Positions 6,904-36,335 of a DNA stretch of 42,648 nucleotides are shown here, piece after piece. A model generated the notes under the pieces. That model was not told where the DNA came from and made no database searches. It was given only the letters and a program-made list of their open reading frames with translations. Position 1 is the stretch's first letter; every line of letters starts with the position of its first letter. Both the position numbers and the translations under genes were made by a program. Origin of the DNA: Phoronis australis (lineage: Eukaryota > Animalia > Phoronida); the NCBI GenBank assembly GCA_002633005.1, contig NMRA01001090.1:6751-49398 (forward strand), given 5' to 3'.

Positions 6904-7388
6904 CTATTGTCCTTTAAAAAGTCCCTCTTTAACCATAGAGCGAATGGTTTTTCCCGCATTCTTAAACCTGCCATGTTTGCTCTGTGCAGATCGGTGTTTT
7001 GATGCTCTGGATAACTTAAACGACTGACTTAAAGATCGGCTCGGTCTCGCTGAGGTGTTCAGAGCAGTTTCTTCTGCGTCGTTTTCCTCTTCAGCATTGT
7101 CGCTCTTCAACTCTTCTTCTTCTGGTTCGTCAACATCTTCATCATTGCCCTCACCTTCAGCCTGTGTACTCATCTCAGTGGCGTCCTCGTGTATCAGGAG
7201 GGGTTCGTTTTCCTCCGCTTCAGCTCCACCTTCCGGCTCACCAGTGTCATCGACATTACCGTCTTCACCAAAATCATTTTCACTGTATAATCTCTGAATT
7301 TCTTGGATATCAGCTACGCTTATCTTTGATCGATTTGGGATGACCGTTTGCGATCTGATTCTTTCCAGAGACGTCATACTAAGCATAT
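6904..7388 (-). CDS. Gene A last exon: acidic-then-basic cytoplasmic tail
   Basis: Acceptor tttacag in phase 1; ORF 6904-7386; D/E-rich block containing EENEPLL, followed by a K/R-rich C-terminus. Confidence 0.8.
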
Positions 7389-10300
7389 CTGTAAATCATC
7401 AAGTATTATTATGACGTTACAACTCCTGATTGGAAATGTGGGCCAGTTGTTCTGGAACAATCTCCATCGTGCAGTAATTTAAAAATCAACTGAACAAGAA
7501 GAAATGCACCAAAGTTTTGACGCACAAAAACGAGGTTTAAAATATCCGTTTATACGTCTTTTAATTACGACAAAAGTTTGACTTAGTGTCAAATAATTGT
7601 GACTTGTTGTAATTCAAGTTTGCAGAGTCTATCTGAGTTTTGTCGAAGTCTGCTTGGCATAAATCAAAAAGTAGTGTATCCTGTGATAAATTCTGGAATG
7701 AAGGGAATTGGTGTCAAATTGCGCCAGCCATACCAATTTGACAAGCTGACACCTGAGCCGTAACAAATTATACCTAGAAGATCTTGCGCCCAATGTTATT
7801 CTAAGTTAACACAGGAACTTAGCAACAAGTCTCTATATTTAGTCAAACATCTACGAAACTATAAAATTGAACATAATAAAGGGTGTTACGTGACCACATG
7901 CTTTGATATTGAATTTTTCCAACCGTCATAGAACCACTGCTTCGTACATCCTAGACGCGTTTCTGCATTAACTGGTTTCATAAACAAATGTGACAATTTC
8001 AGGTCTCATTTTCAGGAAGAAAGCGGTTCCATGACCTCGCCTCTCAAGTTCCACGTAGGGCCTTCTGAATCCCACCTGACAACAAATATGCGATGCACAT
8101 CCCCAGACCAGGCTGCCGCAGATGCTAAGAATAGTGACCATACTCCAATCCAGGGGACCTAACTCCAGTGTCGGGGACCCAACTCCACCCCCAGGGATCA
8201 AACTCCAGTTCTGGTGACTGGAATTGTTTCCAACATTTGATTTTGTGGAGTTAAATGCAGAGAGACTAGTTAATTAAGATAGTGTATTTTTAATTTATCA
8301 GCCAGTCTGTATGTTTTCTTAGACGTCTGCAAAGCTATAAGATAGAAACTAGTATCTGCCAAGTTTTACCAAAATTTAGCGAAAACTAAATGTACATTTA
8401 TTGCAAGGAAGTTTTTGTGATAGAAATATTCAAAATGAATTTTCGAAAACGCTGTTACTTTTTTGTTTTAAGCAGTAGTTTTAATAATAAGGACAGTACA
8501 TTGCCAAAGTGAAATTTTCAACCATCACTGTGGAGAGGAGATCATGAATCATGTGTGAAATTTTTATTTAAATCCAATCCCCTCGCCTAGATGTAATGTC
8601 TCTAACTTAGTCAAATTTTGGGTATTTTCTAGGATTACGTCAGTGATTTAACTTTAAGTTAAGTATGCTCACCTTCTTCAGCAGTTGGCATGTTCGTAAA
8701 TATACTGAAATAGACAAAGACGTGCCGTATACCATGAATTATAATAACATGCCCATCATACACTGTACTTGTACGTTCACCGAGTATCAGTGGTACGTCG
8801 GAGAAGAAGCAATAGTGCCCACTGGTGCTATTTAGTTTTCCACATGTGAACATATGCAAAGATCTCGCAGTGTATAGTTTTACAGAACTGCCTTTCTTAG
8901 TCTAAAGTCTTGTAAACTGTACCTCTTTCGTTTTAGTTGCGGTACAGCCCACACCACCCAGCCGATGATCAACAGTATACCAAAGGATATCGCAAGAGCA
9001 ACGGCAGTTTCAACGGTCACTGTCATTGGTTTCGTAGTAGCTGGTGGGAGGTTTTCTTGGAAAAATAATTTTACCAGTCAAAACAAACGCTGACAAACTT
9101 TGAAATGGAGCACAAACAGAATTAGAGTTTTTTTTTTCGAAATTCGACATCATGTGCAGTTGGTGCACGTCTCAGTCGATATTTTTTTCAAATATCTCAG
9201 ACAAGAATGCTTCAGATGCCCAAATCTCTCTTCAGACTTTTGCACAAAACATTTAGAAATCTGAAAACGCACTGGTCGTGGAAAACATTCATCTAAAGAC
9301 AAAACTTGCGACGTTGGTGTACAGAAAAATGTCTTCGCTGATACGACCTCATCGTCGCGTTCTGTTTTATAAACGTCATTACTGATACGGATCGTTCATT
9401 GGTTCATGTATTGACCTTTCATCTCACAATGCTTTCCTTCAAATCCACGTTGGCATATGCAAGCATAACCTTCCTCAGTGTTGACACATGTTGCACTGTT
9501 TCGACAAGGCTTGGAGTCGCACGAAATTCCCACTGTAACAAAACCGAGCACGTGAATAGTCCCTCCAGCGTCGTACAGAGGGAGGTCAGTACTATTGTGA
9601 ACTGATCGCAGCGTTTGGTCTTATACACTAAATCACCGCTAATAACTTAATGTTCTGAGCCAACAAACAGCTAAATATTGTATAGTGTCTCATAATTAAA
9701 AGATTGGTTAAACATGGATATTAGCTGTTGTTCGTTTTTTTCCGCATCAGGAATCAAAAATCAAAAGAATTACCTCGAGATGTTCGACAGACTAGTCAAT
9801 AGTATAAGCTGGCCATTAATGACTGATTCGTACAACCAGGCTTATTGCAAACGAGTTCAGCGAGACCATTTTGTAGTAAGATATCGTCAGGCGTGTCTTT
9901 CGTTACGCAACGGTCCCTGTGTGACTCAAAAGTAGGAATGACGGTTTTCGCACGGTGTGCTTTACATGGAGCATGCGTTTCATCCGGAATATCAGGAACC
10001 ACGGGCAAAACCCGACCACAAGAGACCGTGGCTGAGTAGTGTGGCATGGGCGATGCAACACTGAAAAAGTGGGGGGCTAAAGCCATCCAGCCCTCCTTTG
10101 ATGCACCACCCATAGACCATGGGCGGTCCCGCACTGAAAAAGTGGAGTGACTATAGACCCTCCAGCCCCCTTTGGTGCGCAGCCCATGTGTGGAACTACT
10201 CAACGTATATGTCATGGTTACCTGCAATAATTTACCTTAAAGTATAATGAACTCTTACCGATTTCACAAAAGTTTCCTTGGACTCCGTACGGGCAAATGC

Positions 10301-12828
10301 ATTCAAAATGCGTTCCTTTGTCCATGCATGTCCCGTTGTTTTGACATTGTGATTTGACACATGGCTTGGTCTCAGCTGAAACATAATAAGAACAGGAGTA
10401 TGGACGTCGGTACATGTATGTGTGTGCGTAGTTGAATGCCTCGCAGTCGAGCACATCACCGACGTGCGGGTACACGACAGATCGCATGGAGAATGTGTTT
10501 GAACCTGTCCATTTTTGTTGTTTTGTCTTGTCTTGCCACGTCCATCACTTTTGACGCCTATTTATCAAAATTAACAGACTGAATGAGCCAACTCTTCATC
10601 AAATACTCTTAAAAAGACAAAATTTTAGACTGTCAAAGGATAGAAAGTACAGTGGTTAGACAACCTTTAGGCCAATCGTGATGCGACTTCCAGCTAATAT
10701 TTACATCGGCATACCTGGAATATTTTGGTGAACACAAACCAAATTAAATAACGGAAGTGCTGAACGACTTGAACATGAATTTGAAGTTCTTCTTCTCCAA
10801 GAGTGATATACAGAAAATTGAAGTCGAGAACAGGAAAATGTCAAGAGAGAAATGCAGACCAATATTAACTAATGACCATAGAGCTGCGCAAGTAAATAAG
10901 TACATGGTTTTGGGTAGATGCCTGAAGCACCAAGTACAAGTGTATTTAATATAGGTACCAAACTCGGTTTTGGCCTATTAAATATACTAAAAGCAACTCT
11001 CCTGTACAGTTATTTTAAACAAAATAATTTTCTCTAACTTTCGACAACTCTGAAAATTTTGGATGAAAATTTAAAAACTCCTTTCAAAGTCTGGCGTGAC
11101 CTACGCTAATAGAGAATTACATAACAAGGCAGCTGTGGGGAACGACTACCCACCAAGGACCATGATGTCCAATATGTGAAATGTGTGATACACTGTATGA
11201 GTTTATACTTGATTCCTGTTTTGTCTTTCAAAATTGATGTCAATGATGTATTATTAGGTAACAGAACGAAGGTTGGTTGAAATCATCAAAACAGGATTTA
11301 GTATCCGCTCAAGTAAGTAATCGCTGGAATAAATATTACCGTAAATAAGTAAGGAAGTAATTGACTTGGTAAGTATTCGAGTGGTGAAGGAATTATTTTA
11401 ATCAAAAGACGGCGGTGTTCCACTGGAGTTGTGTTGGTATGGATGCTTACGTATGCACAACATGCCGTCTCCATGGTAGCCGCTGTCGCAAAGACACTCG
11501 TACGACCCGTCTGTGTTCATACATAGGGCCTTCTCGTGACAAGGTGAGCACGTGCACTCATCGACGTCATTTTCACATTGGTTTCCCGTGTACCCCGGCT
11601 TGCAAATGCATTCCATGGCACTGTGGAAACACGTCCCATTATTTTGACAAATTCCATTTCTGCAGTCTGAAAATTGGACAAAATGCGGTACCTGGGGAAA
11701 ATATTCACGTTAAAGTTAAAATTACGTTTTACGTAGAATGTATACCATGGTGATTTACGAAATAAAACATCAATCAGTATTCGGTATTTTTCGCCTACCC
11801 GCACTCGTATTCTGTTGGTTGTGTGCTAGCTGCCTGATAGGGTAATTCGAAAATACGAGGAACAAGAAACACATAATTGTATGTAGCACATTGTTTACCT
11901 GCATGTTGGATGGTTTCATTCTGAACGTCAAAGCTTGGTGTAGACTTCATAGAGAAAACGCCTGTAACGTAAAGGCCATCATTACCTGAATTTTCTACAG
12001 ACAGGTCCATCTTTAGATGAACCCAGTGGGCGTATATAAGGAAATGTTTCCGTAGATTCTCCCAAGGCGTCTGTTTTGAAAAGGATGTATGAATCTTGGA
12101 GCTGTCCCGTAATGGAAACCAAAGCCACAGTTAAAGCTAAAGGATGAACTCCTAACTGAGGGTATGAGCGTATGTCGATCATGTTGGGTATTGGCGTACT
12201 TGGCGTTTCAATTTGCGTGCCAGCATAGACTATAGTACATGGACTGCCAACTCTGTATATTTTCAATGAACGAAATCTATTACTACCTTAGGCTTAAGAC
12301 GTGATGTCACTATTCATTAACGACACCTGGCGGACATAGCACTCTTTACTTCCGACAGTTACGTCGTGTACTATACTGGACAGTAAAATACATGCAAGAA
12401 CTGCCTCCTCTAGGATATTTCGCAAGACAATGTGGAGTTGCAAGTCTGTTGTCTGAATTACATGGTGCCAGCTACGGTATTAATACACTCGATTTGGATG
12501 AACGTGGTTTTTAATTCCCAAAATGATTTTTTATATAAGCCCCGAAATTGCTTGCAAAAACTCCTTTATCTGTCTTAAGAATTTTAACTTACAGGTAATA
12601 CAGGCATATAAGCAGGTGTAAGGCGATCCGAACTTACGAATATTAAGTCCGTTATAAAAGGATTCAATTTTAAAAAGTTGAAACGACCATTTGTTTGTAA
12701 CACTAAGCGTGCCAGTGTCGGACATAAATCTGTGATACTGTTTATTATCAGTGATTTCAAGGATATTTTGCACCCTTACCGCATGCAGTTTGTAGACCAA
12801 ACCAGTAGAATAGATATCGTCTGCTCAT
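6904..12828 (-). CDS. Gene A: Ig-less EGFx4 single-pass membrane protein (~444 aa model)
   Basis: Exons 12828-12780, 12136-11986, 11833-11799 (signal peptide MSRRYLFYWFGLQTACALTVALVSITG plus linker; less certain), 11666-11451 (EGF + cbEGF), 10375-10259 (EGF), 9532-9416 (EGF), 9055-8923 (TM), 8704-8673 (micro-exon), 7388-6904 (tail). All introns are GT-AG with compatible phases. Confidence 0.75.
8673..8704 (-). CDS. Gene A 32-nt juxtamembrane micro-exon
   Basis: tatttcag|...gaag|gtgagc. Bridges phase 2 (TM exon) to phase 1 (last exon); encodes SIFTNMPTAEE. Confidence 0.75.
8923..9055 (-). CDS. Gene A transmembrane exon
   Basis: ENLPPATTKPMTVTVETAVALAISFGILLIIGWVVWAVPQLKRK: hydrophobic span followed by a basic stop-transfer; donor gtacag. 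Confidence 0.8.
9416..9532 (-). CDS. Gene A EGF4 exon (117 nt)
   Basis: GISCDSKPCRNSATCVNTEEGYACICQRGFEGKHCEMK; six-Cys EGF spacing; phase 1-1. Confidence 0.9.
10045..10188. mobile_element. Dimeric MITE (catgggc...gcccatg termini) with 5-bp TSD TGTGG
   Basis: Two ~72-bp units in tandem; tgtgg is duplicated on both flanks; sister copy at 39384-39535. Confidence 0.75.
10259..10375 (-). CDS. Gene A EGF3 exon (117 nt)
   Basis: ETKPCVKSQCQNNGTCMDKGTHFECICPYGVQGNFCEI; ttcag acceptor, gtaaga donor. Confidence 0.9.
11451..11666 (-). CDS. Gene A EGF1 + calcium-binding EGF2 exon (216 nt)
   Basis: DCRNGICQNNGTC...CENDVDECTCSPCHEKALCMNTDGSYECLCDSGYHGDGMLC; same length as the paralogous gene C exon 26727-26942. 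Confidence 0.9.
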
Positions 12829-13226
12829 ATCTTCAATAGTATTGCAATGCGCGGGCTACCTTATGCTCATGTCATGTCTCGAGATAGATAACGTGCCACG
12901 AGAACGGCATTCCGTGATCTTGAGAACATGACTGCTTTGCTGAATGCAATTGCAGCGCGTGTCATGGAACACATGTTTAGGTTTTGTTATGCCTTCTTTG
13001 TCATAATTATTTCAAAACCTTTTGGCGCCAAACGTCCGACACAAAATTTGCATACAACTTTTGGTAAAGTAACAGATTTGCGGTAGAAAGCGAAGCTTGA
13101 AAGCTGTATCCCAAACACCGGAGCCTGGAACTATCGTCGCAAGCGCATGTTTGTCACTAAACGCTACTACTGTTGTCACGTAAAACACAGTCAAGAGTTT
13201 CCTGAGACGTAAATTACTCTCATAAT
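12829..13226. promoter_or_regulatory. Putative bidirectional promoter between genes A and B
   Basis: The inferred start codons at 12828 (minus) and 13227 (plus) diverge 398 bp apart. Inferred from geometry only. Confidence 0.35.
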
Positions 13227-13421
13227 ATGTCTCATTTTTCTTTCGTGGCCCTCTCTGGAACCATTGCGTTGCTCTTCGAAGTATCCCGTATCTCAGCGGT
13301 CGTGGTGATTAGGCCAAAAGGTCTCAATGGGACAATTTCAGTATCACCAGGAACCAAACTTGTGCTTAAATGCATTGTTAAACACTCGCATCTTGACAAG
13401 AACGTGTCTTCAATGAGAAAG
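13227..13421 (+). CDS. Gene B exon 1: signal peptide + N-half of V-type Ig
   Basis: MSHFSFVALSGTIALLFEVSRISAVVVIRPKGLNGTISVSPGTKLVLKC...MRK; ends AAG|gcatgt (phase 0), matching the paralogous exons that end AAG|gtttgt and GAG|gtttgt. Confidence 0.7.
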
Positions 13422-16400
13422 GCATGTGGAGTTTTAATAGGCTTATTTTAATGTAACGGAATTATGTACTATAGTTTCTTCACGAAAACAACAACGGTTT
13501 TAAAACTTGACATGTTTCGGTGTCATTTATTAAACACCATCCTCAGAAGTCATAATACAGTGGCCACCTAGCTAGGCCCAGCAACAAGTAATGAAGCACA
13601 GATAGAGTCAGTTACAGGGAGTGACAATGAACTACACCAACAATGACAACCTGTGGTGTGTCAGTTGCCTATTGAGATTGGGCTTGCACCAACTGATATG
13701 TAAAGCCTCACGAATTTTAAGCTCCTTTGTTGTTACTGCCTGGTACTATAGTTTCTGTTGTTTGTGATTTATGAGGTAATATTTGCTGAGAACTGGCACG
13801 TTTATTCTTGCAACACTAATGACACATGGTGACAGGTAAGTGCTTATCGATGCTTCATGAGTAAGAGGTAATGTCCCCCAAGTTTGTGGCATCAGACACG
13901 AGGTAAGCTTAAACCCATCCCGTACGCAAGTCGTCTTGATGATGTGTAACTTTTTCCCAGTAACTGGAGATCTTTGCGTAATTAAAAAATAAAATAGCCG
14001 GGCTGCAGCGACTGTTGGCCCAGCCGCCATAGAGACAAACCTACTAATCGAAGTCGTTTGTTCATAAGGTCAGGATGCGCGAATCTTCTAGATTACGTGT
14101 AAGTAAAATAACTAAAACGTTTATTTTAAATCGGTGTGGGTAGACACAACTGAAGAAACTTTAGCACGGGTGCTAACTACAGATAAAAAATAAACGTGTA
14201 TAGAATTGTTTACATTGAGTTATAAGAACATATACAGAAAGAATTGGTGTTTATCGTTCGCATTGCTCACAAGATGTCGCATTGGTCTGAAGAAGTACCT
14301 CTGTCACAGATACTCCGCTTTATTTTCCCTTAGGTTCACTGGCACTTTAAACCAGTCGGTAGTGAGCAGTGGATTGAAGTTTCCTCTGAAACGGAGCAGG
14401 GTTCCGGTTTCAAATACATTCTTGTGGAAACCAACAACGAGAAGACGTGTAGTATTTCAAAGATGAATGTGACTGCTGAAGACGCAGGAGTTTACAAATG
14501 TTTTGTACAAAGTCGATCGGGCGAAAAGGATACGGCTCGGGTCAGAATAACTGTGCAAGGTGAATTTACGATATTTTTAAAATGAAAAATTTTCTGAAGT
14601 GGCACACGTACTGTATCTTCGATTGGTTGATCGGTTCCGAAAATTTGCTTCCAACACGTGCAAGTTGTATACTTTGGTAGAATTCCAAAAATTTCTTTCT
14701 CAAACTTGCAGCAAGGATCAAGCCACGTGTTGTCAAATACCCCACAAGCATGCATGTTCCCAACCAAGACAATTTGCCTAACATGACCACGCCCGATATC
14801 AGCCGGCATAATGGTAAGCCTTGCACTTTCACAGTGTACCTTTGCACGTACTCTAATGACTCGTTGCTGAAGCACAGACTAGTCTTTGCGTTGTTATAGA
14901 AATTAGATGTGTAACACAATTTGGTCATTTAGTCATGACGTTGTTCGCATGTTGTTCTCAAATAATTTCTTCACTGCTGTAATTTTACAGGATTCATGGT
15001 TTCTCTGGCGGCTGCGAAGAACTCGCTTCGTGTGACTGAAGACACCTCCATACTTCTCACGTGCACAGTTGTGAATATCTCCGAGAGTATAACGGACATA
15101 ACTTGGCGAAGGACACTAATGAAGAAAACTGCCCCGTTTGAGATATTTCATTTCGAATTATCCTCTGGTAATTGGAGTATCCCAGAAATTGATAGTGTTC
15201 CCACGCTAAATTTCACTCACGACTTCAGGAAAGAAGCGTCTAACATAACAATGACACTCTCAATAAGTAACTTTACTTCGTGTGATCATGCAGAGTACAG
15301 CTGTGAAGTTCACGGTGTGTCTACAGTAGCCGGAGATTCTATACTGATTAAAATTGACAGTAAGTATCCAGTGTGTCGCCCAGTGTGTCGCCCAGTGTGT
15401 CGCCCAGTGTGTCGCCCAGTGTGTCTTGATACTTTTAGTGTTCCCAACACGGCTCTTTCGGTTGAAAGATTAAATGTACATTTGTACTAACATCATGATG
15501 CCTTATTTCCCAAAGACTTTCATTTACAGGACGTTGAAATTTTGATTTCGGTTTGATGAAACCTTTTATCTATATTGTCAGTTGTAGCTCAAAACTGCTG
15601 TTACCTAGCTGTTGTGGCTGCAACTGCTGCAGCTGCTGCTACTGCTTCTGGAGATGGTGCTTCTACTGATGGTGCTTTTGTTGCTTCTACTGATGCTGCT
15701 GTTGCTGCTGCTGTTGCTGCTGATGATGCTACTGTTGCTACTGCTTCTGCTTCTGGTGACGGTGCTTCCGCTGATGGTGGTTCTGCTGCTGCAGCCGCTG
15801 CTGCTTGTCCTGTTGCCGCTGCCATCCCTTCTATCGCCACTGTTGCTGCTGTAACTGCTGTTGGTACTGATCCCTGTAACTGTTGCTGTTACTGATCCCT
15901 GTACTAGTCAGGAGACACCTATGTATTCTTTAAAACAATCCTTGCTTATAGCTTGTACTGGCTCAAAAACATGGATGTCCTGTCCCCGCTGCTTTTCCTG
16001 TTGCTGTTTCTGCTGTTGCTGCAGCCGCCACCGCCACTGCTACTGTTGCTGATTTTCGTGAGATACCTTGGTATTTTTATAACAATCCTTTGTTACAGCT
16101 CCTAGTGGCCCAGAAAACATGGATGTCACTCCAACCACCATTGACTGGTCATTAACTGAAGAGGCTCTTCTCACCTGCCAAATGGACAAAGTCAGGCCAG
16201 TGCCAGAAGTCACTTGGATATGGAGGGAAAATCTGACTTCAAAGTGGGAAGAGATAAAGAAAACTTTAGGCTACATCCATGTTCATCCGATGACGTATGA
16301 TTATCACAGAGATTCGTGTACATTTTTGGTGAAACGCGAACTAACCCTAGGGCGAAAACTCAAGGATGGTGGAAACTTCACATTTTCATGCAGAGTTTCC

Positions 16401-19400
16401 GGGGATCCACTTTTTGAGCCTGTGGAAAGTCCAACGTCAGCTGAGATAATGTTTGAAAAAGGTTTGGTTGAGATACTGTCTCTGTGTTTGTTAGCGCTAA
16501 GTTGAATTCGTGGGTTCCATTTCTTTTATGCCATTTTCTTTGGTAGACCTGCTGTAGAATCCATTACCTTGGTCTTCAACAACCAGAGCATCTAACTGTT
16601 ATTCGGTCCACTGTTCAAGCTAGGAGCCACAGCCGTTCTAATCCTCATTACACGTTGTTATCGACTACGGTTGATGAAGCAACGTTCCTAACCTAAACAG
16701 CATAATATATCTAACGTCATTTTCATTGATGCTTGACAATTTCAGATACTAGCGATCCATGCAGTGACTTCACTTGTTTCAACGGTGGAACTTGTCATCA
16801 AAATGGAAGCGAAGCGTTTTGTCGATGTGTCTACGGATTTTCAGGAAAACGCTGCAAGAAAAGTTGAGAATTCGCTTGTTGATAAATTTTAATGCAATAG
16901 CCACCATTCCATTTTTTTAACTCATTTCCCGTTTTCTTCAATTACTCACCTTCCTTTATTATCTTATGTAGCCTCCTGTGTGTACTTAAAGTAGCGAAAT
17001 TCATTGCAAAACGTACATTCTGGGATGTTCGTGCTTGACCTTGCCAAGCTCTCAAGATATTAGCTCAACTGCTTGCATCCTGAAAATTCTAAACTATAAT
17101 AATAGCACCGTGCTTTTCATCCATTCAAATGATATCGAGAGACACAATATAATCAACCTACAAAAACACAAGAGATGCGGGTACTTAGATGTAATTGTAT
17201 ATGTACTCGTTGCGAATGGTTTATTACGACGTGTTCCAGAGGTTAGAACATGCGAGTCCAAACCGTGTGCGAATCAGGCTGAATGTATTGATACAGACCA
17301 GGGCTTCTCATGCCGTTGTAAAACTGGATATGTTGGAAAGCTCTGTCGACGGAAGAAAGGTAAGTTGAAAAATAGGCAAGTGGCTTGGTACCTTCTGCGG
17401 TCAACCAGGCGTGCTTAAGCCACACAATTGGACCCACTGCGTTAAAGGTAAGTTGGATGAGGCTCTTTGCCTCGTGATGTAATGGTATTTCAATTCACTG
17501 AAATGAGCATACAAAGTCCTCTGTTCTCACGTATTGTAAAGAATTTGAAAAAATGTGAATGACACGTGATACGATGCTTGTACTCGTTTGTCTTGTATAT
17601 ACAACTAAAAGAACAAATTTGAACGGCCATGATGTTCTGTCACAGCAATAACGAATAACACCAACGTGATACCTGGCAGTCGGGAAGAGGTTCTAATCGA
17701 TATGCTCCAGCAACCAGTGTTTATCCTATCTGCAGTTCTGTTGGTATTACTGATACCTGTTCTAGTGTTGCTGATGTGGCTGATAGTTCGATGTCACTAC
17801 AGACGGTAGGTACATACACGTACGTTGTTGACTTGGTGAAACAGCATTACAGGGAGTCCTTTCCCTAAATACATGTTGTTTGTTTTGAATTAACATTCAG
17901 TTACAGCTCAAATGGATTTCAACTACATGCAGCTTTGTTGAATTATGTTTAATCGTCGTAAACAACCTGCCAACACTGGGCGAGATTTTCCTGCAACAAC
18001 TTGGGAACGGTCTTAAAGTGACGTCAACAACATGTAAGATGTTGGCATCTCTCTTTTTTAGAAATTTGGAAACAGCAATGCGGCACATCAACCACGAAGG
18101 TCAGTTTTCCTACAACTTACCATATTTGTGTGATGGAAGGCGTTTTGAAAATCTTTGTAGTAACAATGAACTGAATGTAACCTGTTCATGCATGGGTATG
18201 CCTGTGGTGTATTTTAGCAGTTGAAGAGCATTTTAAACTTAAACTAGCTTGAAAAAATAATTGACATTTGGAACTGTACAAAAGCTATAATGAAGGCAGT
18301 AGAGGCGTCCGTCGCCAGACACCGGACACTGTTTTATTGTGTGCGCTGGACAACGACTTTCGCCAATATATTGTTATGTGTTATTCGTACGGTTCTATAG
18401 TTTGAGTCCTTTTGGTTCCGTGTTTTCTTGATCCAAGTTCGTCTATGCAATGGGTTCTTTTAACGACAATGCATTGTTCAGTTTACTAGCGTGTTGATAG
18501 CAACATTGGTGCGACTAGACCTTCGAAGCAGAGGGAGCTCACAAAAAGTGAGAATGTTCCTTTCACGGAAAATTATATCATTTCTAAGTTGTACGCAACA
18601 CTTATATATAACGCTGTCTTTTCTCCTTACTTTATGTTTCTACGGTCTCCCAAAAATTAACTCACTCTTCAAATGACAATACGTGCGTTGTTTTTGACAA
18701 AAATATTACTGCCTTAAATTAGTAAAATAGTCATAACGGGGCACTACTGTTAATTATCTTGAGGAAAAAATAATTGTCTTTACACTTCCTTGACTCTGTT
18801 GGTTTTCCAGAAGCAAGTCTGTTTGCCATTCCTGTGTATACTGCAAACGCGATGACACGTGCACCAACATTCGCAGCAGTAGGCGCAGTTGCAGTGTCTG
18901 ATCCTTAAAACTGAATTTGAACCCCCGGCATTGCGCTGAGGTGCAAGTGCATTTTCAGCGACACCCGACATATGTTTATTTTTATTGTCCATCAACGTAC
19001 GTGATTGAGTGTTATATAATTTCTTTTCTTGCTTTTTGTAACGATACCCTGCCAGCAATATAGGCAGTTGTGTGGGTGTTTCTTGTTTTGTCTGTTTCAC
19101 TAATGATGGGAATGTGTTAATGCTAAAGGTGGCTCTTGGAGATTTTTAACATGTTTTCACTAAGTCTCGTGTAATGTCATTTTACTTCTATCATTACACT
19201 GTCTCTATTTTACACGTCAAATGTGATATTCAAATCTCCCTGCCTCTCCTGCTCTCTCCCGCCACCTTTCCCCCGTTCCCTGTGTCACTCCCCCTCACTT
19301 CCCTCGCCGCCCCCCCCCCATATTTCTTGTAAACTTAGGTTTATGTCCAGCTTGTTAAGCAAACATACACTGTGGAACTGCGCAGGTTCCGTGCCATAAG

Positions 19401-20330
19401 TCTCTCAGGCTGTGGAGTTACTTCACAAGTATGCATGGAGGACACACGTTCCCTACACATGCAAGACACCGCATTTTACGACCACTGCTGTCCGATCTCC
19501 CCCGTCCTGATCTGCGTTCATGCAATTCAGTGGGGATTCCCAACAGCCTTCAAACCCGATGGTACGTCTACTCAGCAGGTTGTGGGTGAAACCCAGTTAA
19601 TCTTCAAACGTTACAAGAGTTCACTGATTTTGATAGCCTTTGTTGTTGAGTCTTTTGGCGTATGTAGACGTGATAACAGTCTCCCCATTTATGATTTAGA
19701 ATGACATTTCTCTACGATGCTCACAAAATTGCCATGTTGGCCAGCAGATAACAAATCCCCACGGCGAGGACGTCTCACCAACTTCACTGCTCTGTTTTTA
19801 CGTTAATAATGCCTCACGATTCTGGTCATAGGGCAAACAGATTTGACTCCCTCATGTAGCTTACTTGTAGCTCTGTCGTTGCTCATCGTCGATGTTCCTT
19901 CACCTGACGCTACAATAAGTCAGTCTGTTGTTGTAAAGGACAACGTGTAGCGCCATATATTGAGCACTTTTAAACAAACCAGTTCGTCATGCATATGAAC
20001 ACGATAGTAAGTCTAATAAAAGACATTTTTCCAGATTTAAGAGTGATCACCCAACTGACACAACTGCAAACGAAACCGTCTAGACTACAGTTGACAAGCA
20101 ACCCCAGAGTTAACAACGTAAAATTTCAAGAGAGGGCGCCATTACTTGAATGTGGAGAGAATGACATACAGAGTGTTGAGAAACGAGGGAAATTTGATTA
20201 CAATGGCATTGATAGTGCACAAAAGAAAAGTGGGTCTGCGAAGATGACACAATCTCAGGATCAGAGTGAGAGGGTTGAACTTTTGCCTCGCAGAATTCTG
20301 ACGAAAAAAGCCGTCAAAGCAGAAAGCTAG
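13227..20330 (+). CDS. Gene B: Ig(V,V,C2-like)-EGFx2 single-pass membrane protein (~630 aa model)
   Basis: Exons 13227-13421 (signal peptide + first half of V, GC donor), 14334-14559, 14991-15359, 16099-16461, 16746-16862, 17240-17359, 17646-17805 (TM), 18501-18547 (micro-exon), 20035-20330. Phases are consistent throughout. Confidence 0.8.
13504..13551 (-). ncRNA. Minimal type-I hammerhead ribozyme motif (Penelope-like-element type)
   Basis: Minus strand reads gactt CTGAGGA t ggtgt ttaataaatg acacc GAAA catg TC aagtt. It has the CUGAnGA and GAAA core, stem II ggtgt/acacc, stem I actt/aagt and a palindromic minimal stem III ACAUGU. Confidence 0.7.
14334..14559 (+). CDS. Gene B exon 2: C-half of V-type Ig
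   Basis: VHWHFKPVGSEQWIEV...NVTAEDAGVYKCFVQSRSGEKDTARVRITVQ; DAGxYxC motif; missed by the ORF track. Confidence 0.88.
14991..15359 (+). CDS. Gene B exon 3: second Ig (V-like)
   Basis: LLTC...ITWRR...LSISNFTSCDHAEYSC; ttacag acceptor, gtaagt donor. Confidence 0.9.
15368..15424. repeat. 12-bp tandem repeat (ccagtgtgtcgc) ~4.8 copies, intronic
   Basis: Directly after the exon 3 donor; explains the PVCR repeats in the ORF track. Confidence 0.9.
15595..16051. repeat. Degenerate (GCT/GTT)n trinucleotide tract in gene B intron 3
   Basis: Low-complexity gct/gtt/gat triplets that produce poly-Ala/Leu/Cys pseudo-ORFs. Confidence 0.8.
16099..16461 (+). CDS. Gene B exon 4: third Ig (C2-like), 363 nt
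   Basis: LLTCQMDKVRPVPEVTWIW...DSCTF...FTFSCRV; same 363-nt length as gene C exons 37767-38129 and 28353-28715. Confidence 0.9.
16746..16862 (+). CDS. Gene B EGF exon (117 nt)
   Basis: DTSDPCSDFTCFNGGTCHQNGSEAFCRCVYGFSGKRCKK. Confidence 0.88.
17240..17359 (+). CDS. Gene B EGF exon (120 nt)
   Basis: VRTCESKPCANQAECIDTDQGFSCRCKTGYVGKLCRRKK; donor gtaagt. Confidence 0.9.
17646..17805 (+). CDS. Gene B transmembrane exon
   Basis: ...QQPVFILSAVLLVLLIPVLVLLMWLIVRCHYRR; phase 1 to 2. Confidence 0.85.
18501..18547 (+). CDS. Gene B juxtamembrane micro-exon (47 nt)
   Basis: gatag|c aac att...aca aaa a|gtgaga; the phase 2-to-1 bridge required by the flanking exons. Confidence 0.6.
19370..19740 (+). 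mobile_element. Decayed Ty3/Gypsy-like retrotransposon protease-region fragment
   Basis: AFKPDGTSTQQVVGETQLIFKRYKSSLILIAFVVE, then after a frameshift VDVITVSPFMI*NDISLR. Resembles from memory the QADG..VVGET..LVVE.LDVD.LAG.PFM..NDI pattern of invertebrate Gypsy pol; not database-verified. Confidence 0.5.
20035..20330 (+). CDS. Gene B last exon: cytoplasmic tail
   Basis: tttttccag acceptor, phase 1; contains QERAPLL, FDYNGI and ERVELL. Confidence 0.75.
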
Positions 20331-20831
20331 CGATTCACTTCGCGGAGAAATTCTGAGGAACATGATCGCACCGGAAAACCTTAATAATACTTTAAAGTAG
20401 CGCAAAACGCAAATCAGATGAAGTCATTGATCTTATTTTCTATGCTACGAATAGTACTGCACTCTTATTGAGAATCGAATGAATTGAGAAATTTATATTA
20501 AACACCTCTTCATAAATTTTACACTTGTATTCCAAAGTTTTTTTTCACTGGGATTCTGTCCATTTAACCGTAAACGGACTTAAATAGACGTTTACGACAC
20601 CAAAATAATTTTTTTACATGTACACTGTACACACGTAAGCTATTTTAAGTAAATTTCAGACCAATATTTGTGAAAATGGCACACAATTGGGTGACCGCAG
20701 TTAACCTGTTTTCGTTTTAAAAACATGGAAATTCTTGAGGCGTAATTAAGCTAACTCCCAAAACGAGGTCATCGCGTTCTCATCTTGTGTTTGAATTTAA
20801 CTGGTTACAATACAGTGCGTGCCTGCAATCC

Positions 20832-20997
20832 CCCATACTGCCCTGTCGGCCATGCTGCATTGGCAGCCATACTGCCCTGGCGGCCATACTGCATTGGCAG
20901 CCATACTGCCCTGGCGGCCACATTGCCCTAGCAGACACATTGCCCTGGCGGCCATACTGCCCTGGCCACACGGCCCCGGCGGCCATACTGCCTTGGT
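20832..20997. repeat. GC-rich minisatellite (~18-nt ggcggccatactgccct variants)
   Basis: About 8-9 degenerate units between the stop codons of genes B and C. Confidence 0.85.
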
Positions 20998-21328
20998 CAC
21001 TGAAATCGACCCTCCGTTAGATGCAACGTCTGGTGTGAAGCAATAATGACATATCAGTTCTTTTCGAGTCCAGAAGAAGGGGGGCCGATTTTGTAACAAT
21101 GAGTAGCCTAAATCAAAAGTTGGTCTTCGGCAGAAAGCGCGGATTAATTATCCCTTCAACTTCAACTAACAATCTCAAAGAGCACCGAACCCAAGTTAGT
21201 TAATAATCTCAATCGTTTCATGTTCAAAAAGATTCGTGTTTAAGAAGGATTACTTCCGAAACGCACATTTTCAAAATCCACAAAGACTGTTCACTATCTG
21301 TCTTCAATAACTATCCTCATCATTTTCT

Positions 21329-21927
21329 TTAACGGGTTATTTGCGCTCTCTTTGCAAAGCTACGAGCCTGCCCAGACCTGTTTGGTATTGTAACAGCGTG
21401 TGTGTTCTTAGTAGCCTCGTTATCAAACGTCCTTCTTTTCATGTGCTTCATTTGTCTTAAAAACTTTTTATGCTGCGCCGCGCAAAATGCCTCATACCCT
21501 TCCTTTGTGCGTCGAGCTAAGATAACCCTCCCCTGTCTGTGGCCATGCCGCTGATGGGGTTTTAAGTGCCTTCTAGTTCTGCTGGAGTTGTTCCGTGTTG
21601 CAGATTCATTCTTGTTCATAAAGTCGTCACTCTCAACTTCTTCACCTTCTCCTTCGTCTTCTCCTTCATATTCTTGTTCCCTTGCGTTCTCATAATTTAT
21701 TTCTTCGTCCTCTATTTCTTCTTCACCGCCTCCATTGCCGTCTTCTTCTTTCTCATCATCTTCTTCCCAACGATCCAACACTTCACCTTCCTCGTCATCT
21801 AATAAGCCTTTGCTTACACGACCGCCTAGTAGGGAAGCTCTTTCCTCACCCGAATATGTGCTTCGAACAGTGCTCGGTCGGTAACGACCATTATATGGCT
21901 TGTCCACTATGGTAAGCCGCCTGACGT
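21329..21927 (-). CDS. Gene C last exon: acidic-then-basic cytoplasmic tail
   Basis: gttgtttcag acceptor, phase 1; KPYNGRY, EERASLL, a long D/E tract, then an R/K/H-rich C-terminus. Confidence 0.82.
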
Positions 21928-24900
21928 CTGAAACAACGGAATATTCTAGATTAATTGCTTTTGTTTCCGATACTTCTCTGTAATCACTTCTGAAGTCGGT
22001 GTGTATAGTAAATTTAAAACATCTGCAAAACAATGAATTTACTGGTCCATAAATTCACATTTTTGTTTAAAGCATTTCTGAAATGTCAGTGACAACATAA
22101 TATCCGAGGAAAAGGCTGACGTGAGCTAAATTTTAGGCTGTCTCCATTCAGGACCTGATACAGTTGTTCATCAGGACAATATTGGTAAGACACATGTTTA
22201 ATATACAGCAACTGCTTTTTATACTTACCTTCAAAACTGTGAGCTACTGCTTGACTGAAAAATAAAAAGAAACATGCATTAAATGTCTCTTTAACGGTTG
22301 AACAGATAGACTTGTAAGTCTGATTTTTGCTCAGAAGTCAAAAAAGTTTTATTTTTGTTTTTGTTTTTTGTTTGCTCGCACGTTTTTTAACCCAGTGCTG
22401 ATCCAAACCCTGGCCTTTGAAGAAACTGCGTGTGGAAAACAGTTCTACTTCCATGACGTTGTATCCCCTCAAGGAGTTCGTGGCACTTCCAGGGAGAAAG
22501 GTTGAATAGCAGGCTAATTTTAGAACATTAGCGTACTCCATGCCTAGTTACACACTGGATTCTCAGATAATTCAACATGTTGGTGTAATTGTGCATCCCT
22601 ACTGATGTCGGCCATTTTGCTAATATGCGCCAGAAAGGTCGTGAGTATTACCCGCCAAAATGTGGTGAGATATTTCAATGCACCAGCGTTACCTCTCGAC
22701 AGTCGCACGGTGCTATCCATTCCCCGGTCTCGGTTAAGGTACGTAGAGAATTAGGGCTTTGTGGAGGTGTTGTGGCCAACCGGCAGCCGGCTCCCACAAT
22801 AAAGACTGTAAATTCAGATTCCACAAGAACACGCCACTATAGACTCTTGAGTACGGCATCTTACTCAATTACGTTTGCTAATTTTCAATGCAATACTTAA
22901 AACCAATAACTTTTATGTACAAGTGTCTTGTAGAGTGTATATGTAGAATACATCAAACCGTTTAGATCATCTCTAGTGGTTAAGCACTTTGAATGTAAAA
23001 TAAATGAATGCATGAAATACAATTTGATGGCAGTGTACTAAACTGACCTCCTGTTCAACATACAGCACACTAACCACACCATCAAGCCGAGGAAGGACAG
23101 AATGCCGAACGCTATTATAACGTAGATGTAGACCGGATGTTCGAAAATCTGCGACTGGACGGTATCCTCTGTATCTGTGTCGCTCCTGCTGCTGTCTGTT
23201 GAAATCACACAAAACCGATGATCATTTCATAAATTCCGTATTGAGACATAAATCGGACCAGACCAACATTCCGTAGATCAAAGATACTTGCGATGCACTA
23301 ACGGCGTATCACAGCCGGTCTCGCCGACCAATTTTTTTCTGTGGTCGCCATTATGCTAGGCTAAGCAAGTAAGGTCCCAGCATTCTTCCAAAACACTAGC
23401 CTTTGTTTTGCTAGGTTGTGCGCAGTGGCGGATTTAGAGGGGGGTCAAGAGGGGCCATGGCCCCTCTAAAATTCACCAAGATTCCATTTGGCAGTTCGGG
23501 GGTGCAAATGTCTGACTGGCAAAATCCTGGTTAATACTGTGCCCTGTCCCCCCAACTCAAAATCCGGGATCCGCCTCTGGTGCGTGATCTTTTTTGCAAG
23601 ATCCCTGTGTCTACGGAGTGCTACTCAGCACTTAGCTGCACCCAAACTCGCGTTTGAAAGTAAGTTTCCTTTTCAAGACCTAGAAAGTGCGAAAGTAGAA
23701 TCTTAGTCGAACAGTATCCTAATTGTACACAGGACTGGGACTTGTGACTGTACTACAAAATGCCTATACGCGTCGGTGGCTTTGAGAGCTGCGATTACGT
23801 ACACACAATCGACTATCTTTGGATGAATGACCTGGATCAATAGAAGGGATCAACTGACTGTGCCCCAAAAAGAGGGTTAACCGGTTGATTCCCTGCCTAA
23901 ACTCTAACTTTTTTATGGAGACGTACGTCATTGTGCGAGACAACTAGGTAAAAATTCGACTACACATTCTGGATAATGAGAAGTCCACGTTGCATTTTAA
24001 CTGTGTTGACTGATACGAGAGGTGTTGCAGTAGCCAATCGGAGTAGACACTTGATGAAAGCGAGACCTATCGGGATAAAACTAGTGAGCGAACGACTTCC
24101 GCCTCACTTCATGAATGAAGATTCATCAAACCACTATAAAGAGTTGAAACCATGTTTCATTTATTTTCGTGCATAAAGTTGTTTTTTCGTCAGTCAACAG
24201 TAAATGCGAAATGCTTAGTATTGAAAAGTACACGTAGTTTGAGAAACACAGAGGGAATATCTTTCCAAGAGAAACTGCAGGAAATATCCCGTTTTATGTT
24301 TAAACCAAAGCTTGTTATTGTCAGACATAACCAGACCATGAACACGTCGTCCACACTGGTGGTACCACACCTAGTGCCAGATTTGCCACTGAAGTAGGTT
24401 ACAAACTGAAGGATCAAATGTCCCACTGAACACCCGCTGGTTTCACCAACACTAGACAGGCACTGTATCAAAAACTCACCCTTCATCTCGCAGTGTTGTC
24501 CTTCGTAGCCCTGTTGACACTTGCATAAGTAACCCTGGTCCGTGTTGATGCATGTCCCGTTATTCCTACATGGCAGTCGATCGCACCTGGCTAGAGCTGA
24601 AAACAATTTCATTTTGCTTTCATCATATGATATACCATCGTTGGGTGGATTTAACTAATTCCCATCTACATTCGCTAGTGATTTTCACCCATCATAACTT
24701 ACTGATGGACACGCCTTCTTTCTTCCGTACAACTCTAAGTCAGTACAGTGCACATGATTGCTCAGCAGTATTCCTGGGTTGTATCAAAATTCCATTCCCA
24801 AGATGCTACTACCCAAGGGCCCGTTCCATGAAAACTAACTTAGCTAAGACAAATCTTAAATTCCAGTCAATTTTAAAATAAAAATTAAATTTGTCTCTGG

Positions 24901-26266
24901 TCCGATTCAAGAAAGAAATCTTAAGTTTGACTTAAGTTTTTGACTGACTTTTTGCCTCAATTTTGACTTCCTTATCGAACGTGGCAATTTCCAAGTTTGG
25001 AAGTGGAGGCAAATCCTAGAATTGCGTCGAAAATGAACTTAAGTCAATTTCTTATAATGGGTCTCTAGCCTGTATTTCACTTCTTAACTCTAGTGTCAAG
25101 GATACGAGTTCGAGTTTCAACCCAAAATTTCGAGTTTTTACCTGTAATTAAGTTTTTGCTCGAGTTTGCTGTCCGAAACTAGGGGTCATGAAGTACTAAC
25201 TTGGGCTGGAAACTCAGGTTCCATTTCAATTCTGAATAAATTTTGTCTTGACAAGTGTTACTCCACACACTTTGTCGAAGTCGCGAAGAAGCTGTTTTGC
25301 AAATCCGTCATATGACAACTAGTAAGCAGCTAGTGGTCAGTTGCAATAATGTCACTGTAAATTGTGCGTTACGTTCGGCAAAAATTATTGCGACAAACGT
25401 TCCACCGAGCTGCCAAATTATAGTGACAAGGAGTTCGTCCAAAATTGTCATGGTCCGACAGGGTTCAGTTTATTTCGAAAACTACTACTACATATTTTTT
25501 AATTGAGAAAAAGTCGTGGACGGCTTACCTTGCTATACGTGCTTTGATTGGTCTTCGTAGTTTTGACCTATTCCCTTAAATGTGTTATCGTAACATTATT
25601 TCTAAAATCCTCAACACTATTTTAATAAGACTTTAATTACCGCGTTCGCAGTGTTTTCCCGTGGAACCATCGGGACATAGACATGTCGCCTCTGTCGCAT
25701 TCATGGTACACGAACCGCCGTTTTCACAAACGTTGGTTGTACAGTCTTTAGTAGTATCTGAAAACGAGTCCATGCTTGAGATTCAAAACTGTTTCGAAGT
25801 GAAGAGTGCATTGGTTCAGGTCGTGCAGGTTTTTCTACCTATCACCAGCCTTAAAACTCCCGATCAAAATGAACATTTAAAGCAAGTCATGGGTACACGT
25901 ATGCGGTGGCCGAAAGATTGCCATCCCTCTGGTGATGTTGTTGAAAGCATCTTGAAGCAAAAGATAAACTATGGGCTTTTGGTGTTGAGATTTATTGAAA
26001 ACTGAAAAAAAAATTTCCAATGCTAGAATCTTTTGCGTCATAATCGTGAGTTCTAACATCGAGTCGGACTCGATGGGAATCATTTGGTGAGAGACTCGAA
26101 AGGAAACATTTACTGGCGAGAGACTCGTTGCCAGGAAATATTTGGTGACTAAAGACTCGGCGGGAAACATTTACCTTTCCATTTTGCAAGAGGCTGCAGA
26201 GAATACTCAAATCACCCGTTATTTGAATGTTGTTGTTGTTGTTGTTGTTGTTGTTGCTGCTGCTGC

Positions 26267-26335
<69 letters not shown>

Positions 26336-29300
26336 GTATTAATCAGTTAATATCGAACATGTTTCTAACAACTCTTACGTATCTTATAAGCCGTGCGATA
26401 TTAATTTTTGTAGCCTTAGGTATGCGCTAGGGCTGTGTTCTTACCACAAACCGACATCAGCGCAGAGTGAACCTGTAGACGTGCTGCTCTTGACCTTGGA
26501 ACCAAGCAATTATATTGAGGTGACCACTTAGTACCCTAGTTGTGAGGGTCAGCCTTCGATATTAGAATACTTGGCGATATCTAGTCTATGTTAGGAATTA
26601 ATCCTGAAGGGCATTGAGAAATTAAATTGTATCGAGTGCCAAAATTAATGGTGAAGAAAATACTACTGGTTGCGGAAGTTAAGTCATGACCTAAAGGCTG
26701 CCCGGAGTGGAATTATGCGTCCGTACTTCTGCAAGACACTCCGTCACCGACATAGCCCTGGGCACACTCGCACTCGTAAGATCCCGCCGTGTTTGTGCAC
26801 ACCGCGTGCTCGTGGCACGGTTTCAAAGCGCATTCGTCAATGTCGTTTTCGCAGTGTTTGCCGTCGTAGCCGGGCGGACACTCGCATTCTCCTGTTGACG
26901 CCAGACAGCGACCGTTATGTTGGCAGCCAACACGTGTACAGTCTGCAACATTTTTGAGCACTTTTAGATGACGAATTAACGAAAAACGTATTTAAACGAT
27001 GCAAAAGGATATAGGGAAGAGTATTTCTTGTTGTATATTAAATGCTAAAATAATTGTTCCCCACTCAACATAGTTGGTTCGAAAAGCATCCTTCCCATAT
27101 CATTCGATCTAAAATCATGACATCCAAATGCATTGGCAACGATTTAAAACATGTTTTTGACAATTTAGAGAAATGTTATTCTATGGATGTGAGTGTACAA
27201 CAAGTATTTTGAGTAAAATCGTGCCTTAGTACAATATAGGTACTAACATGCCAAAGTTGAATTGAGCATTATGTTCGCCTCTCTTGTCTCGTTGATCAAT
27301 TTACTCAGCACAAGCTTGCCTTGTTGGCCTCGCAGGTTTTCCAATGTCTCGAGCTCGCTTGCAATCACAGCCAGTGCATCTTAGTTAAGAATGTGAAAGG
27401 TAGAGGGCGTTATTTTAAACTAGAACAAGGCAAGTCAGTTTTGCAATTCTTCCTGGCCGGATGCAGCTCAACGTGTGCGCATTACTAACACGTAAAAGAT
27501 GTGATTAAGTGAGCTAAGTTGTTGTGAAGCTAAACACAGTAAACTTTGTGAGACATTGCTAGATAGCCACAGTGTTGTACTGGAGACATCCACATGAGTT
27601 TTTCTCTGAAAGAATGCTCAAATTGGAGCTCCATTTCATAGAACTTTGGCTGTGAAAACATACCTTCGTTTTTGAAGAAGCCTAGGCAAACAGAATTCCA
27701 GAAAGCTAAACGTTGAATACTGTTTTGATGAATTATTAAGCAGACAAAGGTCCTTTAAAGTATTGTACTTGCGTTGTTTCTGGTTATGAAGACAATACAT
27801 GCTTTTGGTCAAAGTAAAATCAAGCACACACAATGCATAGATCTATCTGCACGGCTTCCCTGAATGTCCTCATTGTTAAATTCTACCGGCGTATTTCATA
27901 AGCTCACTAAGTCTCTCTACAGACGACTGCTCTCATTTAGAAACGCACGTTGTTCTTTAATCCACACGTACCCACTGTCACAAACGAAACTTTGGAGGCG
28001 CATCACGATAGTGTTGTCGTATTCGTGTGAACAGACAACTTATGTAACGTATTAGAGTGCTCGTGTCAGAACGTTTTGAAAACCAAATAAAAAAACAATC
28101 GTGTAAAAGGAGAACGTTTGAACGAGATGGGAATGGCCGAAGAACGTTTTCAAAACCAAAGAATTCGCGTATTCAAATGAAACCTGAGTCACTTGGCCAT
28201 TGCAACGAACACAACGTGGCTCCAATTGATGAAATCCACAAATGAACCAATCAAAACTGAATACATGACAGCGATTTGCAGGCGATAAAATTGTTGGAAA
28301 CTGCATCACACAGATAAGAGAGCTCTTTCTAATACCACCAGCAGGAGCTTACCCATTTTGTAGACAACTTTTGTAAACGTGGTGCTTTCCAATGATTCTT
28401 TAAATGGTCCACCAGATACTACGCAATGATACGTGTAATTTCCCGCCTTTTCTTCGTTTCTTAACAAAGTCAGTTTCCGCTTCACTTCGTACACACAGTT
28501 TATGCTACGGAAATGGGATTTCATTGCGTGCACATGCACAAAATCTGAACCGGTTGTTATCTTCCCTGTTGCATCCGTCGAATCATCCTTCCATACCCAC
28601 ATGAGGTCCGGTTTGGGCTCAATCTTTTTGACTTTACATGTCAGCAGTGCCTTTTCCTCCCTGGAACTGTCGACGATAGGTGGCGTAATCAAAATATCAC
28701 TGGGGTTGCACGGAGCTGAAACAGGGCAAGTATTACTTCTGTAAACGGGAGCGAAGATCGCAGTTGGCCATGAAATCGTTTAATAGTCACGTGACTTGAA
28801 ACTAGATTAAAATTTGAGATTCATGTAAGTCTGCTGATATTCATAATGCTCAGATTGTGCGTGTCTTAGTAATCAAACTTTGCCGTTTACCATGACGAAC
28901 CGTAACTTTGAAGCTATAAAGGTTTTTAAAAACATTTTGAATTTCATTTAGGCGCATTTAGACTTACTGTCAACTATTACTTTGGTGACAGCTTTTTTTG
29001 ACATTCCATTGCTTTTAAACGTGCACTTGTACCAGGCTTGGTCGCACGAGTTGAAGTTCTTTAACGACAAAGTTACCGATGTCCCATACGTAGTTTTTGT
29101 TGTCTCCATTGATAATTTAAGACCGGGCCTCGATTTCTTGAAGGCGTCTGGCACGTGACCAATGTTGGTTTTGAGGTTGTGCTCGTAGATTACTTCCATG
29201 CGAGAGCCACGTGACGCACCACGCCTCCACGCTACTTTCATACTTGTATAATTTAGACTTCGTAGTTTACACGTAAGCTGGATGCTGTCGTCCTCGCCTA

Positions 29301-36296: not shown

Positions 36297-36335
<39 letters not shown>

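Follow-up and report, generated by a model that had tools for sequence, protein, structure and literature searches.

Short acidic dileucine signals conforming to [DE]xxxL[LI] have been described in a range of proteins, among them ERAPLI of LIMP-II, EKQPLL/ERQPLL of tyrosinase, LL1 of OCA2 and ENTSLL of HIV-1 Nef (PMC2173715; available parts of PMC3418312 and PMC2882754), and it is through ERAPLI that LIMP-II binds AP-1 and AP-3 (PMC2173715). According to the available text of PMC3418312, Glu performs better than Asp at position −4, Pro at −1 suits AP-1, Ser at −1 retains AP-3 binding and Asp at −1 abolishes binding, with ExxPLL being the melanosomal consensus. The same text places lysosomal and melanosomal signals mostly 6–11 residues from the membrane, with distal signals tending towards internalisation; OCA2 is an exception, its signal being functional at 70 residues, and two of its three consensus matches are inactive. 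In published mutagenesis, uptake of a CD8 reporter was at least doubled by Pro at −1.

At the level of gene clusters, the Alr genes of Hydractinia and the fuhc-sec/fuhc-tm pair of Botryllus resemble the locus described here. The available part of the Alr study (bioRxiv 10.1101/2022.03.04.482883) describes lineage-specific, clustered single-pass Ig genes with exon shuffling, with tails too divergent to align yet sharing short motifs, and a tail micro-exon in Alr2 whose skipping truncates the tail. The Phoronis australis genes A, B and C show clustering and tail divergence of this kind and also have a micro-exon. However, Alr proteins have ITAM/ITIM tails, a Fn3-like spacer and one Ig domain per exon (same source), whereas A, B and C, compared by description, combine EGF (and TSP1) modules with Ig domains split between exons, and have dileucine motifs without ITAM or ITIM. 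The polymorphic fuhc-sec and fuhc-tm genes are likewise tightly linked, one being of EGF type and the other a three-Ig transmembrane (TM) gene (PMC3691228, available part). In that account fuhc-sec is secreted, carries two EGF domains and lies in tandem with fuhc-tm, for which the part available reports no signalling domain; in contrast, gene A, with its four EGFs, also encodes a TM and a tail and is arranged head-to-head with B, while B and C join Ig and EGF in a single chain.

The three genes were modelled within the window, that is, the whole 42,648-nucleotide stretch analysed, with domains assigned by Pfam. Gene A (6904..12828, minus strand, corrected boundaries; 8 coding exons, 403 aa) encodes a predicted signal peptide, an EGF plus Ca-EGF (216 nt), two further EGFs (117 nt each), a TM (exon 8923-9055), a micro-exon (8673..8704, 32 nt) and a last exon (6904-7388). 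Gene B (13227..20330, plus strand; 9 coding exons, 627 aa) encodes a predicted signal peptide, an Ig domain split over two exons, a V-like and a C2-like Ig domain, two EGFs, a TM (exon 17646-17805), a micro-exon (18062..18099, 38 nt) and a last exon (20035-20330). Gene C (21329..41817, minus strand; at least 19 coding exons, 1357-aa model) begins with a predicted signal peptide, TSP1, three Ig domains, a further Ig and repeated 105-nt Thr/Lys-rich stalk exons, followed by two Ig domains, four EGFs, a TM (exon 23048-23195), a micro-exon (22229..22254, 26 nt) and a last exon (21329-21927). The modules thus amount to four EGFs in A, three Ig and two EGFs in B, and TSP1, six Ig, stalk and four EGFs in C. 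All three have the same C-terminal layout of TM exon, micro-exon and last exon, each micro-exon running from phase 2 to 1 and ending in Glu, and each protein has a single TM besides a hydrophobic N-terminal start (weak in A). Exon for exon, the EGFs of A and C are identical at 41/71 and 23/38 residues, and the two EGFs of B match their counterparts in C at 16/38 and 17/38. Judged from sequence, A, B and C are paralogous type I membrane genes related through an EGF-TM cassette.

RNA expression of the cluster was seen in two of three raw-read runs, which had been picked by species label; X3 and the X4 contigs had no depth over the three last exons, which is taken to mean no more than that expression was not seen in them. 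Among the joints listed, reads backed at least 4/7 modelled joints in A, 3/8 in B and 12/18 in C. The frame of the gene C tail is fixed by two such joints, 21927/22229 (27+20 reads) and 22254/23048 (31+27 reads). In A and B the joint from TM exon to micro-exon is read-backed; that from micro-exon to last exon was absent among the 15 (of 31) joints listed in RNA reads and rests on GT..AG ends, phase 1 and an E|D junction as in C.

No orthologue of A, B or C was found in any sequence collection searched. An HMMER search of 1.84 billion representatives returned 40 matches, all generic multi-Ig proteins with a best single domain of 27 bits and an EGF pattern in 0/40; these were rejected as orthologues and their tails were not used. 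Candidates were likewise absent among longer proteins searched with a C2-domain profile (0/3964) or a V-domain profile (0/4289), among near-length proteins compared with tail C (0/293) and among pattern matches in metagenome contigs (0/39 and 0/92 confirmed), and PDB sequence searches gave generic Ig only. The order of a V-like then a C2/C1-like domain is that of nectin/CTX/CD80-type proteins (Pfam; Atlas feature scores 0.93-0.96), although the HMMER bit score and the lack of EGF in all 40 matches limit this likeness to generic Ig, and membrane-proximal EGF repeats are not known to belong to those families. In the main texts of the papers available, searches turned up no account of this family, nor any of dileucine signals in a cluster of this kind.

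Every last exon of A, B and C encodes E-x-x-[P/S]-L-L in frame and C-terminal to the TM. The motif of gene A is ENEPLL (7195..7212, minus strand; aa 302-307 of 403), 76 residues past the TM; it lies within an acidic, Glu-rich block, where Glu at −4 arises cheaply. In gene B, ERAPLL (20130..20147, plus strand; aa 562-567 of 627) is preceded by Q and lies 50 residues past the TM, and in gene C, ERASLL (21827..21844, minus strand; aa 1187-1192 of 1357) lies 39 residues past the TM, ahead of an acidic block. These are the only [DE]xxxL[LI] matches in tails A and C; tail B has a second, ERVELL (20268..20285, plus strand; aa 608-613). The coordinates in the preliminary description, including the extended forms EENEPLL (7195-7215, minus strand) and EERASLL (21827-21847, minus strand), proved exact on translation and in the last-exon frame. 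ENEPLL, ERAPLL and ERASLL have inner residues of the kind that published rules allow (Glu at −4, Gly absent from −2, and Pro, Ser or Ala at −1; PMC3418312, PMC2882754), whereas ERVELL, with an acidic residue at −1, does not and is probably weak or inactive. The motifs stop 60-165 residues short of the C-terminus, and none of the three tails contains an ITAM, ITIM, PPxY, GGA-type DxxLL or PDZ end. FoldIndex is negative round all three motifs. Single-sequence AlphaFold models of tails A and C, run without an alignment, place the motifs in coil, which is weak evidence at such low confidence (pTM 0.17 and 0.22); disorder of the tail context is thus a tentative prediction. Five polymorphisms are listed for the last exon of gene A, none within the motif, an outcome expected by chance in ~83% of cases and uninformative.

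The best explanation, to which we give a probability of roughly 0.6, is that the tail motifs act as acidic dileucine signals for AP clathrin adaptors, most likely AP-2, moving the receptors into endosomes. In the textbook model the leucine pair fits pockets of the sigma subunit with Glu −4 on a basic patch, and the same docking would apply here, with AP binding withdrawing the receptors from the surface into endosomes. With Pro at −1, A and B would bind AP-1/AP-2 more strongly, and C, with Ser at that position, would be biased towards AP-3. The interpretation in the preliminary description is partly supported: its adaptor reading has support from the motifs' sequence class, position, predicted disorder, non-random recurrence and favourable −1 residues, while its suggestion of ligand uptake is conjecture. 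In consensus, Glu −4, Pro/Ser −1, cytosolic location and predicted disorder the motifs are like published acidic dileucine signals. They differ in lying 39-76 residues from the membrane, against 6-11 for typical lysosomal signals (PMC3418312, available part), in being known from sequence alone, in being carried by large Ig/EGF receptors and in varying in position between paralogues.

It should be considered whether the motifs are a coincidence of acidic low-complexity tails, or once functional and now drifting. The chance of [DE]xxxL[LI] in a single tail was 12-22%, and the available part of PMC2882754 gives a base rate of 15% for human type I tails. Some classical class (dileucine, YxxPhi or NPxY), any of which the preliminary description could have picked, was common to all three tails in 2043 of 40,000 shuffles (5%), and the motifs of A and C are out of register. 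Against this, [DE]xxxL[LI] itself occurred in all three tails in just 160/40,000 global and 152/40,000 local shuffles (0.4%), figures for paralogous and hence non-independent tails, and E-x-[^G]-[PSA]-L-[LI], a pattern set post hoc after the motifs were seen, in 0/40,000. Over six frames the window holds 69 stop-free matches, six of them ExxP/S-LL; three of these six are the tail motifs, as are both of the window's ExxPLL (A and B). On these counts the recurrence is non-random, and coincidence or drift is quite improbable.

Where a working signal would lead is a separate matter. The preliminary description had offered endocytosis or routing to lysosome-related organelles or granules; the former is favoured and the latter weaker, since distances to the membrane of 39, 50 and 76 residues compare with the usual 6-11 (PMC3418312, available part). 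A main route by AP-3/AP-1 to lysosomes, lysosome-related organelles or secretory granules, with display on demand, would suit ERAPLL of B, which differs at one residue from the LIMP-II signal ERAPLI, a likeness named in the preliminary description and with ERAPLI confirmed in print (PMC2173715), and would suit ExxPLL, Ser −1 of C and the OCA2 signal active at 70 residues (PMC3418312, available part). However, ectodomains of this size, made of Ig, EGF and TSP1 modules and a mucin-like stalk, seem suited to the cell surface, and this route is considered unlikely. Adhesion proteins such as E-cadherin use dileucine basolateral signals, and the V-C2 module recalls nectin/CTX/CD80-type adhesion proteins, so that the motifs might be polarity signals for AP-1-type basolateral sorting in epithelium. 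Pro at −1 suits AP-1 (PMC3418312, available part), but AP-2 fits the motifs equally well, and basolateral sorting ranks with coincidence as a poor prospect. Least probable is selection of the motif as a dock for some other common partner, such as a scaffold, ER-export or degradation factor. Non-random retention does point to selection without naming the partner, and the identity between B and C exceeds the need of AP binding, yet all constrained positions (Glu −4, Pro/Ser −1, Leu-Leu) fit published AP preferences. LIMP-II belongs with CD36, whose ectodomain lies between two TMs. Membership of that family was also considered for A, B and C and rejected, Pfam giving only Ig, EGF and TSP1 families over 24 exon products and each protein having one TM.

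If AP-dependent endocytosis is correct, the motifs would provide the first functional handle on this orphan receptor family, and the proteins would be internalised or sorted instead of signalling through ITAM/ITIM, leaving them a narrower role, in the regulation of surface display, in adhesion turnover or in uptake. The mechanism is textbook, and what is new is likely its family members, a lineage-specific Ig/EGF receptor cluster. No new biology would follow unless the family is a recognition or immune system, since the mechanism is known and the consensus occurs in 15% of human type I tails (PMC2882754, available part). A bolder and doubtful possibility is that these are fast-evolving recognition receptors unified by an AP-sorting signal rebuilt elsewhere in one paralogue; the −1 residue would split AP-1/AP-2 from AP-3 routes, a tail-less read-through isoform of A would switch from endocytic to surface-resident, and trafficking rather than ITAM/ITIM would control recognition.

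The tails of A, B and C share their exon layout and are unalignable at the residue level, as had been stated in the preliminary description. The 32% identity given by MAFFT for tails A and C was not accepted as evidence for residue-level homology, being equalled in 85-244 of 600 local shuffles (unmasked); in a DNA comparison, 109/200 shuffles reached the observed value. Even for this closest pair the best alignment leaves the motifs out of register, and forcing them into register costs 37-49 score units under four gap settings. The claim that the motif is conserved in these tails is therefore unsupported as to position for A versus C. Selection may keep a working signal while the remaining tail drifts, and in the A lineage the signal has apparently shifted by ~30 residues, through loss and regain or compensating indels. 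If true, this shift between A and C would illustrate how a short linear motif can relocate from one paralogue to the next in nature. Tails A and C both have an acidic block followed by a basic block, and B and C have ERA-[P/S]-LL in common, which is more identity than AP binding requires.

Three neighbouring genes of the window, here called A, B and C, were modelled from splice signals, open reading frames and RNA reads under the same species label in intron-rich, eukaryotic DNA of about 41% GC, with RNA support drawn from 18–19% of the reads in each raw run. Each encodes a single-pass Ig/EGF-type membrane protein with a signal-like start, a transmembrane segment (TM) and a cytoplasmic tail. 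Between start and TM, A (12828–6904, minus strand, 403 aa) carries four EGF domains, B (13227–20330, plus strand, 627 aa) three Ig and two EGF domains, and C (41817–21329, minus strand, 1357 aa in the assembly) TSP1, four Ig domains, repeated Thr/Lys-rich exons, two Ig and four EGF domains. This Ig, EGF and TSP1 content identifies the DNA as animal. Judged by sequence, the three genes are paralogues. Their EGF exons can be paired individually by length as well as sequence, with identities of 41/71, 15/38 and 23/38 for A/C and of 16/38 and 17/38 between B and its C counterparts, while between B and C gap-free alignments of the C2-like Ig domains reach 36% and 28%, and alignments of the V-like domains 25–30%. 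A common 3′ layout was also found, in which the TM exon (phase 1-2) is followed by a micro-exon of 26–38 nt (phase 2-1, with Glu at its end) and a last exon which opens with Asp and holds the acidic dileucine motif ([DE]xxxL[LI]) of that gene.

The motifs read in the preliminary description translate exactly: EENEPLL in A (minus strand, 7195–7215), ERAPLL preceded by Q in B (plus strand, 20130–20147), with a second match, ERVELL, at 20268–20285, and EERASLL in C (minus strand, 21827–21847). The tails were described there as otherwise unalignable, which is true at the residue level, since no tail pair with masked motifs beats local shuffles. That the motif is conserved between them was borne out in part. 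In global alignments the B/C and A/B motifs fall into register with a small penalty or none. ERA-[P/S]-LL is common to B and C, 33 and 29 residues into the last exon; the A/C motifs, however, are out of register, and forcing them together costs 37–49 score units over four gap settings. A and C form the closest pair, with an acidic-then-basic block order in both tails and late landmarks 2–4 residues apart, and the motif precedes the acidic block in C (residue 29) and lies within it in A (residue 60). This suggests that the motif may have been relocated in A, a suggestion rather than a result because the A/C alignment is largely compositional. Word-seeded protein searches, HMMER against 1.84 billion representatives and metagenome scans returned generic Ig proteins at most, and no orthologue.

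Taken singly, the tails gave the consensus at rates of 22%, 16% and 12% when shuffled; in human type I tails it is carried by a similar share, 15% (PMC2882754). It was present in all three tails together in 160 of 40,000 global and 152 of 40,000 local (20-residue) shuffles, a joint figure which is no clean p-value because paralogues are not independent; any of three classical motif classes was common to all three in 2043 of 40,000. The tail motifs exceed the consensus, each combining Glu and Leu-Leu with either Pro or Ser at −1 (counted back from LL). This class, a pattern fixed post hoc, arose in 0 of 40,000 joint shuffles (product about 1e-5 or less). Across six frames, the window holds 69 stop-free [DE]xxxL[LI] matches, of which six fit ExxP/S-LL, three of these six being the tail motifs; both ExxPLL matches are tail motifs. 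The motifs are real and non-random, and their occurrence by chance is quite improbable. The motif was either retained while its flanks decayed or arose repeatedly, and either case implies selection.

Work on OCA2 (PMC3418312) states that AP-3 binding needs Glu at −4 and AP-1 binding Pro at −1, that Ser or Ala at −1 retains AP-3 binding, and that binding is lost with Asp at −1 or with Gly at −2. By these rules, which are mammalian, ENEPLL and ERAPLL would be strong signals, ERASLL would lean towards AP-3 and ERVELL would be poor. The −1 residue of ERASLL is that of HIV-1 Nef ENTSLL. The previously proposed likeness of ERAPL[LI] to the LIMP-II signal is right, because LIMP-II ERAPLI binds AP-1 and AP-3 (PMC2173715); A, B and C are not relatives of LIMP-II/CD36. 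By sequence criteria the motif belongs among the acidic dileucine signals, and it would work as they do; it is likely an ordinary AP-adaptor sorting signal that three paralogues in this uncharacterised cluster of Ig/EGF receptors have retained.

The reading of the motifs as signals for AP-mediated endocytosis is given a probability of roughly 0.6. They lie 39 (C), 50 (B) and 76 (A) residues from the membrane, distances which favour AP-2 endocytosis over granule routing: membrane-distal dileucine signals tend to serve internalisation, and lysosomal or melanosomal ones tend to lie 6–11 residues from the membrane, OCA2 being an exception (PMC3418312). Of the two routes proposed earlier, the endocytic one is therefore favoured, and delivery to lysosome-related organelles or granules becomes unlikely. 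The tails are predicted by FoldIndex to be disordered around the motifs, and single-sequence AlphaFold placed those of A and C in coil at low confidence. ITAM, ITIM, PPxY, DxxLL and PDZ ends are absent from all three tails; one YxxPhi each was found in B and C, and one YxN in C, a putative Grb2-type site. Polarised sorting is doubtful as the role of the motifs, and docking of another partner more doubtful still. In tail C (21329–21700) the YxN tyrosine is flanked by acidic residues and a long basic helix is predicted (model residues 141–173); tail A (6904–7000) has a shorter one near its end (model residues 140–153).

Likeness to Hydractinia Alr (bioRxiv 10.1101/2022.03.04.482883) is limited to a lineage-specific Ig receptor cluster with unalignable, motif-bearing tails, and that to Botryllus fuhc (PMC3691228) to the pairing of an EGF gene with an Ig gene; membership was rejected as the architecture fails in both. 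The Ig pair resembles the V-C2 module of the nectin/CTX/CD80 type, a generic similarity only. No description of the family was found in the part of the literature that was searched.

Among the RNA joints listed, at least 4 of the 7 introns modelled for A were confirmed, along with at least 3 of 8 for B and at least 12 of 18 for C. Both joints of the last two introns of C have read support (27+20 and 31+27 reads); the joint into the last exon of A and B is predicted only, being absent among those listed. Sense reads cover all three last exons in raw-read runs X1 and X2, with none in run X3 or the X4 contigs. A GC donor was modelled in the first intron of B (13421–13422), its joint absent among those listed, because the split Ig domain must stay in frame as in C. 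Only 399 bases (12828–13227) separate the start codons of A and B, which are arranged head-to-head, and this suggests a shared bidirectional promoter; both genes are expressed in X1 and X2, with no expression seen in X3. C-sense reads run beyond the C stop and antisense over the last exon of B (19675–21330); B and C are convergent genes whose 3′ ends possibly overlap. In X2, ten sense reads (seven starts) cover the base 6 nt within the last intron of A (8660–8672), with none in X1. A stop lies four codons past the micro-exon, so that a read-through form would lack the dileucine motif; such a tail-less isoform is a possible, if thin, lead, and the reads could be unspliced pre-mRNA.

Of 80 listed genome–RNA differences (510 in all), 37 were dropped as outside modelled exons and 43 classed, two as non-coding. 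The 41 coding ones comprise 22 non-synonymous and 19 synonymous, including 5/5 non-synonymous in tail A, which suggests high protein polymorphism and hints at a fast-evolving, recognition-type family. At the end of a 48-nt linker exon of C (37284–37441), RNA and assembly differ by four other letters at the joint, probably an allelic difference. The C stalk (30161–34149) consists of tandemly duplicated 105-nt Thr/Lys-rich exons (31142–31246, 34045–34149 and a degenerate third near 30161) within duplicated units of about 2.9 kb, and the sole N of the window falls within this region. Joints from the 105-nt exon back into itself are supported by 59 and 70 reads, pointing to more copies in transcripts than assembled, or to variable copy number. 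It should also be noted that a GCT-rich intronic repeat (15600–16050), an (AAC)n microsatellite (26228–26335) and, between the B and C stops, a 17-nt tandem array (20816–20983) are present.
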